Assembly: GCA_965216325.1 (NCBI GenBank)
Contig: OZ244160.1
Coordinates: 2,624,001 to 2,688,000, forward strand
Source: Coraliomargarita sp.
GTDB taxonomy: Bacteria > Verrucomicrobiota > Verrucomicrobiia > Opitutales > Coraliomargaritaceae
DNA length: 64,000 nt
Direction: 5' to 3'
Shown here: positions 25,613 through 26,127 of the stretch, one piece after another
Numbering within the stretch: the stretch's first letter is position 1
Layout of the letters: each line of letters starts with the position of its first letter
Notes under the pieces: generated by a model
Told to the model about the DNA's origin: nothing
Seen by the model: the letters and a program-made list of their open reading frames with translations, nothing else
The model's database searches: none
Program-made: the position numbers and the translations under genes

Positions 25613-25656
25613 GGAACATCGAACATCGAACGTCGAACGTCCAACTTCGAATGGCT
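25613..25656. repeat. Heptamer tandem array (GAACATC type), left arm
   Basis: GAACATC GAACATC GAACGTC GAACGTC CAACTTC GAATGGCT. Confidence 0.85.
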
Positions 25657-25667
25657 CTTGGTTCAGG

Positions 25668-26087
25668 TTAAGATTTGGCTGCGCGGTCGCGGGCGGTGTT
25701 AATGCTCGCTACAAAGATGCGGATGAGTTGATCGGTTTCGCTCAAGAGTTCGTCGAGCAGTTCTGGCTTTTCGACGAGGGGAACGCATTTGACTAGTTTT
25801 AGCCAGCGTTGCGTTTCGCGTAGTTCTTTGAGCGAGATTTTGAGTTTATGAATGAAGTCTTTGGCTGATTCGGCTCCCTGTGCTTCACCGTGATTGGCGA
25901 GTGGAGAAGTCGATGAGCGCAAAAGCTGATTGGAAACATGGCGTCCAGCTTCGGACGATTCGATCTTACGCGTTAATCGAATCGTCCTCACTGAAAATTC
26001 CAGTAATCGCTCCTCCAAATCATACAGCGTGCGGCCTTCTTCAACAATCAGGTCATCCCACTCGGAATTTTCCTGTGTGTAAGCCAT
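25668..26087 (-). CDS. Four-helix-bundle protein (TIGR02436 / 23S rRNA IVS-protein-like)
   Basis: LEERLLEFS..NQLLRSSTSPLANHGEAQGAESAKDFIHKLKISLKELRETQRWL. Confidence 0.9.
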   Translation of the reverse strand: MAYTQENSEWDDLIVEEGRTLYDLEERLLEFSVRTIRLTRKIESSEAGRHVSNQLLRSSTSPLANHGEAQGAESAKDFIHKLKISLKELRETQRWLKLVKCVPLVEKPELLDELLSETDQLIRIFVASINTARDRAAKS

Positions 26088-26127
26088 TCGATGTTCAATG
26101 TTGGAGGTTCAAAGTTCGACGTTCCAG
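26082..26127. repeat. Heptamer tandem array (TTCGATG type), right arm, inverted relative to 25613-25656
   Basis: AGCCA TTCGATG TTCAATG TTGGAGG TTCAAAG TTCGACG TTCCAG. Confidence 0.85.

Follow-up and report, generated by a model that had tools for sequence, protein, structure and literature searches.

The window analysed here is a stretch of 64,000 nucleotides from a Coraliomargarita sp. contig (OZ244160.1). Between leuB and alaS it contains a small gene that is enclosed by two inverted arrays of heptamers, referred to here as arms. The gene and its arms are called the cassette, and all features of leuB, the cassette and alaS lie on the minus strand. A hairpin built from the same family of heptamers is found elsewhere in the window. 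The features are as follows.

22795 to 25608, minus strand: alaS (alanyl-tRNA synthetase), the downstream host gene; tRNA-synt_2c; PF01411, PF07973 and PF02272
25613 to 25656, minus strand: downstream arm, AGCCATTCGAAGTTGGACGTTCGACGTTCGATGTTCGATGTTCC on the coding strand; inverted repeat and Tandem Repeats Finder, period 7
25668 to 26087, minus strand: cassette gene, 139 aa, four-helix-bundle protein (PF05635 / TIGR02436, S23p/IVP family)
26082 to 26125, minus strand: upstream arm, about 5.4 degenerate heptamers; inverted repeat and Tandem Repeats Finder, period 7
26145 to 27245, minus strand: leuB (3-isopropylmalate dehydrogenase), the upstream host gene; PF00180 Iso_dh, E = 3.4e-131
41782 to 41893, no strand assigned: cargo-less hairpin of the same heptamer family between two minus-strand ORFs; repeat searches

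The cassette gene starts with an ATG at 26087-26085 and ends with a stop codon at 25670-25668. On the coding strand the upstream arm reads GGAACGTCGAACTTTGAACCTCCAACATTGAACATCGAATGGCT, and the ATG of the cassette gene lies within its last bases. The leuB stop codon is followed by the upstream arm after 19 nt (17 nt with a slightly wider definition of the arm), and the downstream arm ends 4 nt ahead of the alaS ATG at 25608. A repeat search determined that the arms at 25613-25656 and 26082-26125 are 44 nt long, 80% complementary and 425 nt apart, and Tandem Repeats Finder gave both a period of 7 and 5.4 copies with the consensus GAACATC / TTCGATG. With up to two mismatches, TTCGATGTTCGA has 23 matches in the window versus 7.83 expected, a number that was reached in 0 of 100 shuffles. 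The arm complementarity takes in CGAATGGCT / AGCCATTCG, which places the cassette gene's own ATG in the stem. When a 556-nt RNA covering the locus was folded, the minimum free energy was -177.1 kcal/mol compared with -142.95 +/- 6.42 kcal/mol for shuffled sequences (z = -5.32), and the predicted MFE and centroid structures both pair the two arms. A preliminary description of this DNA had reported inverted heptamer arrays matching at 34 of 43 positions, which is essentially the figure found here, and had placed the arms 17 nt past the leuB stop and 4 nt before the alaS ATG, a spacing that is borne out. It had also claimed that the pairing spans the start of the cassette gene, and the stem that forms in silico does contain this ATG. 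Between 25300 and 27400 no sigma-70-like promoter was found on the coding strand, by a consensus that may not apply to this phylum, and a scan of the same interval gave no terminator-like site on the minus strand.

The cassette protein matches PF05635 (23S_rRNA_IVP; E = 8.2e-15, 55.4 bits versus a cut-off of 33.8), which is its sole Pfam match, and TIGR02436 (four helix bundle protein; 9.6e-26, 90.1 bits versus a cut-off of 24). The S23p family motif GxxRxxxSxxxNxxE, as given in a passage of PMC3936711, corresponds to QLLRSSTSPLANHGE in the cassette protein, which retains R, S, N and E and has Q where the motif has G. In an alignment of 12 sequences Q54, R57, S61 and E68 are invariant and N65 is nearly invariant. 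The protein also has a sequence match to PDB 2rld (one entry with five chains; E = 1.3e-13), and a pentamer of a Xanthomonas S23p homologue is cited in PMC4990558. Comparison with orthologues gave dN/dS values of 0.05-0.13, indicating that the protein is under purifying selection; synonymous sites are saturated, yet the arm consensus persists. Profile searches returned no nuclease or recombinase family match, in agreement with the earlier statement that no recognisable recombinase is encoded, and there was no match in a defence-system library.

Heptamers of this type are not confined to the leuB-alaS spacer. In the genome, TTCGATG-type heptamers form 17 short cargo-less hairpins, 3 long hairpins and about 8 lone arms, and a degenerate three-unit array occurs 28 times versus 0 times in first-order Markov random sequence of equal length. 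The arrays lie mostly within spacers that separate co-directional genes. Same-strand ORFs lie on both sides of at least 15 of the 28 array loci, and the distance from the end of an arm to the following ATG is often 4-15 nt. The hairpin at 41782-41893 has arms at 41782-41830 and 41852-41893 and a loop of 21 nt, and as DNA it folds with -22.9 kcal/mol (z = -3.54). Only one TTCGATG hairpin in the genome, that at leuB-alaS, carries the four-helix-bundle gene, and one heptamer arm pair encloses an IS110 copy together with a REP. In the array census suggested in the preliminary description, the arrays recur genome-wide, mostly as cargo-less hairpins, and the locus is not unique in having them. Targeting of heptamer hairpins by IS110 was considered and rejected, as 9 of 9 copies adjoin GC-rich REP-like palindromes and 1 lies between heptamer arms. 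A gatC-like gene, named by eye from its sequence, was observed between two complete 6-mer hairpins. A sediment metatranscriptome showed high depth on the arms alone, and it contains two contigs in which one arm follows another after about 20 other letters; these contigs were attributed to cargo-less hairpins of other organisms and not to excision, and DNA carry-over may also be involved. Four RNA runs were compared with the locus and none of them covers the cassette; in the two small ones, which come from another organism, the reads reach no more than parts of alaS and leuB.

Relatives of the cassette were collected by a search with a five-sequence alignment, which yielded 80 loci from named genomes with proteins 54-88% identical, 79 of them analysable. 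The 80 loci span Verrucomicrobiota, Desulfobacterota-type MAGs, Planctomycetota, Lentisphaerae, Nitrospirota, Bacteroidota and Chlamydiota. At 60 of the 79 loci the gene is flanked by an inverted repeat with a score of 12 or more, versus 4 of 284 shifted controls, and the remaining 19 close homologues have no clear inverted repeat. Two or more TTSRANG units on both sides, in the leuB-alaS orientation, were found at 50 of the 79 loci and in none of the 284 shifted controls. The leuB-alaS site itself accounts for only 4 of the 80 loci; other sampled hosts include T2SS E/F, paired ABC ATPases (liv-like and opp-like) and others. By a crude ORF call the cassette is co-oriented with both neighbours in only 39 of 67 loci, and two relatives have a whole hairpin, and not half of one, on either side of the gene. 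One further relative locus, read by eye, lies between two permease-like ORFs. Its recurrence in unrelated operons across several phyla gives the package of gene and repeat the appearance of a travelling cassette. This comparison supports the view, already put forward in the preliminary description, that gene and arms behave as one horizontally spread unit, and the arms appear to track the protein and not the site or the host. No cassette relative was found on viral contigs, and the plasmid matches to the cassette protein were all below 60% identity and mostly from Nostoc. The abundance of arrays correlates only partially with the presence of the cognate gene. A genome of the same genus (G002, 99% complete) has 99 array matches and no close orthologue found with this query, and such arrays are absent from one genome whose homologue is 50% identical.

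The wider family shows a similar arrangement with different repeats. Three other intact paralogues in the genome, 17-18% identical to the cassette protein, have distinct arms with AAGGTGN-like, CAGAAGC-like and 6-mer TAATCN units. In a family sample consisting of the best 30 PF05635 loci from 150 Verrucomicrobiota genomes, 27 of them analysable, inverted arms flank 20 of the 27 loci versus 1 of 108 controls, and the period is 7 in 16 of these 20. Inverted heptamer arms were also found around 5 of 6 homologues on cyanobacterial or Chloroflexota plasmids. Homologues that are 85% identical have AATTCGT in common, and one that is 73% identical has AATTCGC. Each protein clade seems to have its own heptamer, and the different paralogues have different arms.

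The leuB-alaS spacer was compared across 30 loci, 27 of which have alaS in reach. The cassette is present in 5 of the 30 loci, one of them with stop codons, and two relatives have a pseudogene copy here. In 8 of the 30 loci the spacer is occupied by a GxxExxY gene whose arms are made of 10-mers; in a same-genus genome with this second cassette the leuB piece is 97% and the alaS piece 96% identical. One spacer holds a truncated remnant and one holds another armed gene, bare hairpins or arm remnants are present in 4 of the 30 loci, and spacers of 1-108 nt without recognisable arms were found in 9. On inspection of the 30 loci, occupied and empty sites showed neither a target-site duplication nor an outer boundary in common. 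Judging from these comparisons, the cassette at leuB-alaS is old, syntenic and vertically inherited across several genera rather than a recent arrival, so no recent movement is seen there. The comparison of leuB-alaS junctions for empty sites, which the preliminary description had suggested, thus shows a polymorphic spacer that includes sites without the cassette.

The preliminary description had further proposed that the arms pair at the level of the mRNA and hide the start codon of the gene. Arm mismatches in the 60 armed relatives comprise 77 G.U, 105 A.C and 99 others, next to 1841 Watson-Crick pairs. Because sense-strand G.U is not in excess over A.C, the mismatches lend no specific support to pairing in RNA, and DNA-level pairing or mere binding-site arrays would fit them equally well. 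Shuffling the order of the units brings only a small drop in the complementarity score of the arms (median z = 1.7; in 8 of 45 cases p <= 0.05), and much of this complementarity is due to both arms being arrays of one consensus. The stem covers the ATG at leuB-alaS, but hiding of the start codon is not general, as only 13 of the 60 armed relatives have a stem whose end is no more than 3 nt from the predicted start. The genome does encode an RNase III (212.5 bits, above the cut-off).

The kinship to rRNA intervening sequences (IVS) that had been suggested for this gene is supported by the family match and the shared architecture. In PMC4990558 the Coxiella IVS is described as an S23p ORF in a stem loop with tandem heptamers just upstream of the ORF, rRNA IVS are excised by RNase III and the solved S23p homologue is homopentameric. 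On this account, the 23S rRNA IVS of Leptospira, Coxiella and others resemble the cassette in having an ORF of the same family in a stem loop with terminal inverted repeats, in being sporadic and horizontally spread and in having no recombinase, and the Coxiella heptamers beside the ORF start parallel the cassette arms with their period of 7 and 5.4 copies. ORF-bearing and ORF-less insertions are reported at the same rRNA sites of CPR bacteria in a passage of PMC11270868. The cassette differs from the IVS in lying between leuB and alaS and not in 23S helix 25 or 45, in having 5-6-unit heptamer arrays as both arms, and in sharing these arms with the 17 short cargo-less hairpins. Its ORF is under purifying selection, whereas that of the Coxiella IVS is described in PMC4990558 as decaying, and cleavage by RNase III, which is known for rRNA IVS, would be expected for the cassette only by analogy. 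The literature searched, which lay largely outside subscription journals, contains no account of family members outside rRNA that have hairpin or heptamer arms. The earlier label of an undescribed system is too strong, because the cassette is a non-rRNA form of a known element; the Coxiella heptamers had already been noted (PMC4990558).

Other systems share parts of this architecture. Eight RAYT-like genes with GC-rich inverted repeats were read by eye among the top-scoring loci listed for the genome. REP sequences are the substrates of RAYT transposases, and REP/RAYT units (REPtrons) share with the cassette a layout in which a small gene is enclosed by an extragenic repeat in inverted copies, the repeat being scattered elsewhere as well. 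Each gene copy of a REPtron has its own repeat family, as the S23p paralogues do. Unlike a REPtron, the cassette encodes a four-helix bundle with no Y1/HUH transposase match, and its arms are tandem heptamer arrays and not single GC-rich palindromes. The cyanobacterial STRR sequences are intergenic tandem heptamers and are kin in form to the TAACTGA arrays. The latter are direct repeats beside start codons, and their authors suggest that they act in translational control; they resemble the cassette arms in being intergenic, in having 2-6 tandem heptamers and in often ending just before a start codon, and they are common to distant phyla with no known vehicle (PMC4679880). They are described there as direct, without an inverted partner or cargo gene, one inverted set being present among 170 TAACTGA-type arrays, and neither 'helix bundle' nor '23S' occurs in the text (PMC4679880). 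In contrast, the heptamer arrays studied here are mostly inverted pairs and are tied to a protein clade. The DGR accessory protein Avd belongs to a four-helix-bundle fold family related to that of the cassette protein. One paralogue in the genome has a sub-threshold DivGenRetAVD match, and the cassette protein has no match to DivGenRetAVD (NF033474) at E <= 0.001; unlike Avd, which is encoded next to a reverse transcriptase and template/variable repeats, it has leuB and alaS as neighbours and no reverse transcriptase in the flanks. Eighteen 23S_rRNA_IVP family members have been reported in cas loci, for example between cmr3 and cmr2, and the passage in question, which is silent on flanking repeats, interpreted this position as a functional connection with CRISPR-Cas (PMC3936711). 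On an Anabaena plasmid we found a family gene that separates cas2 from cas1 and is surrounded by AAAAGTA heptamer arrays. The pattern seen in the present analysis suggests generic insertion between neighbouring genes.

The reading that we favour, with confidence only a little above even, is that of an intervening-sequence-type cassette that is operon-borne rather than rRNA-borne and is related to the 23S rRNA IVS element. A promoter-less S23p/IVP gene would sit in the loop of an imperfect stem of about 44 bp whose inverted arms consist of 5-6 clade-specific heptamers, and gene and arms would travel together and insert in short spacers of co-transcribed genes. The cassette would be transcribed by read-through from leuB. 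Pairing of the arms in the transcript would leave no more than about 25 nt, at the stem base, between the stop codon of leuB and the start of alaS, and it would cover the start codon of the cassette gene. RNase III may cut the stem, as it does in rRNA intervening sequences, and leuB, the cassette and alaS would then be on separate messages. The protein, which like its solved relatives probably forms a pentameric ring, may recognise its cognate heptamer array, and the cargo-less hairpins may be non-autonomous derivatives or further targets.

An alternative that we regard as unlikely is a DNA-level element similar to a REPtron. The arms would then be DNA hairpins or cruciforms (for example in ssDNA at the replication fork) that serve the cassette protein and a host enzyme as substrates in movement or copying, with any RNA stem as a by-product. 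The lack of a wobble bias towards the sense RNA agrees with this, as do the folding of a cargo-less hairpin as DNA and a polymorphic site with two cassette types and bare hairpins. The gene also lies between inverted copies of a repeat found dispersed between other genes, which is the layout of the eight RAYT-like genes. Against this reading, the protein is a helical bundle of 139 aa without a nuclease or recombinase family match, and the inspected occupied and empty sites have neither a target-site duplication nor a shared outer boundary. No excised or empty variant of this strain was seen in the RNA runs, which do not extend over the cassette. Less probable still is a host-serving regulator that binds the arrays genome-wide, among them the cargo-less hairpins shortly ahead of start codons, and tunes translation or mRNA stability of many operons, with its gene placed in one of its own sites for autoregulation. 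The filling of co-directional spacers by cargo-less hairpins, the arms that often end 4-15 nt before an ATG and the purifying selection on the protein are in keeping with such a role, and intergenic heptamer direct repeats beside start codons are a precedent (PMC4679880). Related genomes nevertheless keep many arrays without a close orthologue (99 matches in G002), the gene is pseudogenised in two relatives at leuB-alaS, and the spread across phyla into unrelated operons looks selfish and not like a conserved regulon.

Finally, a REP-like family of intergenic hairpins that is unrelated to the gene might happen to bracket it by coincidence, which we consider very improbable. In its favour are the single gene-bearing TTCGATG hairpin of the genome, the other items between or beside arrays (the IS110 copy with its REP and the gatC-like gene between 6-mer hairpins) and the two relatives with whole hairpins around the gene. 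This reading is already hard to hold, however, against the same heptamer flanking the same protein clade at 50 of 79 loci in distant phyla versus 0 of 284 controls, a separate repeat for each paralogue and arms at 20 of 27 family loci versus 1 of 108 controls.

In a wider sense, it is possible, although we hold this only tentatively and consider it rather doubtful, that S23p/IVP genes and their cognate inverted heptamer arrays are one widespread, hitherto unrecognised class of selfish cassette in which a ring protein reads its own array and promotes the maintenance or spread of the hairpins. If true, this class would account for the rRNA intervening sequences, for the presence of the family inside cas and housekeeping operons, and, in cyanobacteria and other phyla, for at least part of the intergenic heptamer arrays (STRR-like, TAACTGA-like). 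The same lifestyle would be shared by a second gene family, the GxxExxY genes whose arms are 10-mers. Members of the family inside cas or other operons should be annotated with caution, as they may be insertions and not functional partners. The hairpins are a source of RNA structure within operons and probably of contig breaks, which bears on assembly and operon prediction. The origin and movement of the rRNA IVS and the role of their ORF have been standing questions since the early 1990s, and so have the intergenic heptamer arrays. The comparisons offer a usable rule, namely a clade-specific heptamer, arms that travel with the gene across phyla and bare hairpins scattered through operons, and with this rule the old questions about IVS would become experiments on binding, cleavage and mobility with defined partners.

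The cassette, a 139-aa gene of the four-helix-bundle (S23p/IVP) family enclosed by two inverted arms of TTCGATG-type heptamers, is located on the minus strand in the order leuB, cassette ORF and then alaS.

26145-27245, minus strand: leuB (Iso_dh, E = 3.4e-131)
26082-26125, minus strand: upstream arm, 44 nt, inverted repeat 80% complementary to the downstream arm
26087-25668, minus strand: cassette ORF, 139 aa (PF05635 23S_rRNA_IVP, E = 8.2e-15, exceeding the cut-off)
25613-25656, minus strand: downstream arm, 44 nt, inverted repeat 80% complementary to the upstream arm
25608, minus strand: ATG of alaS (tRNA-synt_2c, E = 1.2e-180)

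The ORF is also matched by TIGR02436, "four helix bundle protein" (E = 9.6e-26), and by the solved chain 2rld (E = 1.3e-13), and a search of a defence-system library with it gave no match. In each arm 5.4 copies of a 7-mer were called. The leuB stop lies 19 nt ahead of the upstream arm, 4 nt separate the downstream arm from the alaS ATG, and the stem includes the start codon of the cassette ORF at its inner end (CGAATGGCT / AGCCATTCG). These results confirm in every particular what the preliminary description had observed of the gene, its inverted 7-mer arrays, their spacing and the start codon in the stem. When a 556-nt stretch was folded as RNA, a check it had proposed, the arms were paired in both the MFE and centroid structures, with an MFE of -177.1 kcal/mol compared to -142.95 +/- 6.42 for shuffles (z = -5.32). 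Positions 25300-27400 were scanned and contained no terminator-like site on the coding strand and no sigma-70-like promoter, a consensus that may not hold in the host phylum. Synonymous sites are saturated between the cassette gene and five orthologues (pS 0.64-0.89) and the dN/dS is 0.05-0.13 wherever dS is estimable, which indicates that the protein is maintained by selection. The arm consensus is kept across the divergence spanned by these orthologues.

The leuB-alaS spacer was compared at 30 loci, the window's own and 29 relatives, with alaS within reach in 27. A PF05635 cassette occupies the spacer at five of these loci (the own genome and the relatives G015, G008, G021 and G023) and was found at leuB-alaS in four further named genomes; given this recurrence, the cassette is old and largely vertically inherited at the site. 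The gene carries in-frame stops in G021 (L114) and one in G008 (L111) while the arms are still recognizable, so arms can outlive the gene. Eight spacers (L099-L103, L106, L107 and L127) contain a GxxExxY gene (TIGR04256) in the loop between inverted 10-mer arrays with AACC at the start and GGTT at the end (AACCGCAGATG... / ...CATCTGCGGTT type), including that of the same-genus genome G002, whose leuB and alaS pieces are 97% and 96% identical, respectively. GxxExxY is a second gene family with the armed-cassette layout, in the same spacer. One spacer has a truncated remnant, one has another small gene with CACAGAG-type arms, four have bare hairpins or arm remnants (one joins a GxxExxY-type arm and a TTCGACG-type arm), and nine of 1-108 nt are without recognizable arms. 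The comparison of junctions put forward in the preliminary description reveals a polymorphic site, armless spacers included, that has been occupied, swapped and emptied repeatedly.

At least 545 relatives came from a search in which each species was represented by one genome, and the best 80 loci, whose proteins are 54-88% identical, were taken. They are labelled from seven groups: Verrucomicrobiota (Coraliomargaritaceae, Puniceicoccaceae, Opitutales, Akkermansiaceae and Chthoniobacterales), many Desulfobacterota-type MAGs, Planctomycetota, Lentisphaerae, Nitrospirota, Bacteroidota and Chlamydiota. A locus with too short a flank was dropped, leaving 79 that were analysable, and 284 windows displaced by 600 or 900 nt served as controls. 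A flanking inverted repeat score of at least 12 was determined for 60 of the 79 loci (median 21) and 4 of the 284 controls. At least two consecutive units of the pattern TTSRANG were present on both sides, in the orientation of the target, at 50 loci, and at least three at 29; neither was seen in any control. The arms have a median length of 34.5 nt, about five units, and a pair typical of Desulfobacterota-type genomes is GAACATCGAACATCGAACGTCCAACATCGAATG / CATTCGATGTTGGACGTTCGATGTTCGATGTTC. Only 4 of the 80 loci are at leuB-alaS; other sampled neighbour pairs include T2SS protein E and protein F, two adjacent liv-type ABC ATPases and two opp-type, and one relative is flanked by permease-like ORFs both upstream and downstream (by eye).

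Arms are also found across the wider family. The 30 top-ranked PF05635 loci were taken from 150 Verrucomicrobiota genomes. Of the 27 that could be analysed, 20 had inverted arms, versus 1 of 108 controls; the period is 7 in 16 of the 20, and the unit sequences vary widely. Inverted heptamer arms surround five of six cyanobacterial or Chloroflexota plasmid homologues, with AATTCGT common to two proteins that are 85% identical and AATTCGC accompanying a third that is 73% identical. The own genome has five PF05635 matches. Apart from the target, three intact genes are among them; they share 17-18% identity with it, and each occupies a narrow spacer in which an ORF closes just ahead of the upstream arm and an ATG directly follows the downstream arm (by eye). 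The inverted tandem arrays around them differ in unit: an AAGGTGN-like 7-mer, a CAGAAGC-like 7-mer and a TAATCN 6-mer. One clade in different genomes has one heptamer and different clades in one genome have different repeats, a double dissociation that provides the chief argument for treating the gene and its arms as one functional unit. In an Anabaena cylindrica plasmid (L159, NC_019772.1 154403-157123), AAAAGTA / TACTTTT heptamer arrays surround a four-helix-bundle gene that separates cas2 from cas1 and is encoded on the opposite strand. This agrees with reported family members inside cas loci, which passages of PMC3936711 interpret as a functional link; they may be insertions rather than cas partners.

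In the own genome, a set of 866 crude ORFs with lengths of 80-220 codons was ordered by the score of the inverted repeats that flank them (median 7, 95th percentile 10). The target, the 6-mer-armed paralogue and a third paralogue's locus are covered by ORFs that scored 21.5, 20.5 and 15.0, respectively. Further top scorers, named by eye, were RAYT-like genes with GC-rich REPs, a DUF559-like gene, and a gatC-like gene (131863-132156) between two complete 6-mer hairpins. A GxxExxY gene with 10-mer arms (G000:C1:1944265-1944648), confirmed as TIGR04256, was also among them; a second TIGR04256 match is at 246420-246764.

The 3.06 Mb of the own genome contain 41 TTCGATG-type array clusters at a loose threshold. 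A strict three-unit pattern gave 28 arrays, compared to none in random sequence of equal length built by a first-order Markov (base-to-base) model. Sorted by eye, there are 17 hairpins with loops of 3-90 nt, about eight lone arms and three arm pairs with long inserts: the target cassette (435 nt), a non-coding stretch with other repeats (494 nt), and a stretch holding a GC-rich REP and an IS110-family transposase (1.9 kb). A crude ORF model places same-strand ORFs on both sides of at least 15 of the 28 arrays, and the next ATG is often 4-15 nt beyond the arm end. The window itself has a second arm pair (41782-41893) with a 21-nt loop, no gene and a hairpin fold z of -3.54, which occupies the spacer of two minus-strand ORFs; the array itself places a spurious ATG ahead of the downstream ORF. 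The expected association of arrays with cargo genes held for the family's arms, also across phyla, but the own genome's arrays are mostly cargo-less hairpins. Six relatives with a close homologue have 26-241 array matches, G002 has 99 though no close homologue was found, and G039 has none despite a 50% identical homologue, so array abundance follows the cognate gene only partly. In a sediment metatranscriptome (run X20), very high contig depth fell on the arms only (25587-25668 and 26079-26119) and two contigs connected one arm to the other through about 20 unrelated letters, which means that this library is rich in heptamer-family hairpins of other organisms.

Many other short-tandem-repeat families are present, including several further 7-mers and a GATTAA-type 6-mer with about 65 arrays genome-wide. 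The latter forms the arms of another PF05635 gene (G000:C1:1507845-1508243), builds both hairpins around the gatC-like gene and occurs as a lone array at window 38390-38414. Three families form a mosaic in the intergenic stretch 30257-30447, in this order:

GTGAAG/AAGGTGN-like array, directly after the DUF1501 gene start
GC-rich REP-like palindrome, GTAGGGGCGTTGCTTGCGACGCCC ... GGGCTTCGCAAGCAAAGCCCCTAC
GATTAG/GAGTAG 6-mer units

An IS110-family element of ~1.5 kb (PF02371 and PF01548) has nine DNA copies, 99.8-100% identical, at G000:C1:2344311-2346292 and eight other sites, that all encode one identical 362-aa transposase and all adjoin GC-rich REP-like palindromes; one copy and its REP are nested between heptamer arms (the 1.9-kb insert). 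Eight small RAYT-like genes (motifs by eye; G000:C1: 1437675, 2016047, 576112, 2316624, 179245, 3007746, 2404193 and 1680034) each lie between inverted GC-rich palindromes, so the genome also carries what look like classic REPtron units.

The closest described relation of the cassette is the rRNA intervening sequence (IVS), the subject of original papers by Burgin (1990) and by Ralph and McClelland (1993). Passages of PMC4990558 describe a horizontally acquired Coxiella IVS in which RNase III cuts a stem whose loop contains an S23p ORF, and three tandem heptamers lie immediately upstream of the ORF; an S23p homologue was solved as a homopentameric ring. By analogy, the arms would pair within the leuB-cassette-alaS transcript, and the stem would mask the start region of the cassette and, by looping out the insert, keep leuB and alaS near each other. 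RNase III, which the genome encodes, would cut the stem, and the protein would read its array of five to six units. Several results weaken these steps: G.U is not favoured among arm mismatches on the sense strand (77, versus 105 A.C and 99 others), shuffling unit order reduces arm complementarity only modestly (median z = 1.7), of 60 armed relatives only 13 have a stem that comes within 3 nt of the predicted start and 30 have one that comes within 15 nt, both neighbours are co-oriented with the cassette gene in only 39 of 67 loci (a crude call), and array abundance tracks the cognate gene only in part. A DNA-level, REPtron-like mechanism may operate, or the protein and its arrays may act as a host regulator.

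Family members are known in rRNA insertions (passages of PMC4990558 and PMC11270868) and inside cas loci, and unexplained intergenic heptamer direct repeats common to several phyla are noted in passages of PMC4679880. A full-text literature search, with most subscription journals outside it, found no account of inverted heptamer arms flanking non-rRNA members, of the clade-specific heptamer rule, of cargo-less hairpin families or of parallel GxxExxY cassettes, and these four appear to be new. The idea of a mobile mRNA-level intervening cassette is partly supported: its mechanism is proposed by analogy to the rRNA IVS, and the armed cassette is real, conserved and more general than was thought.
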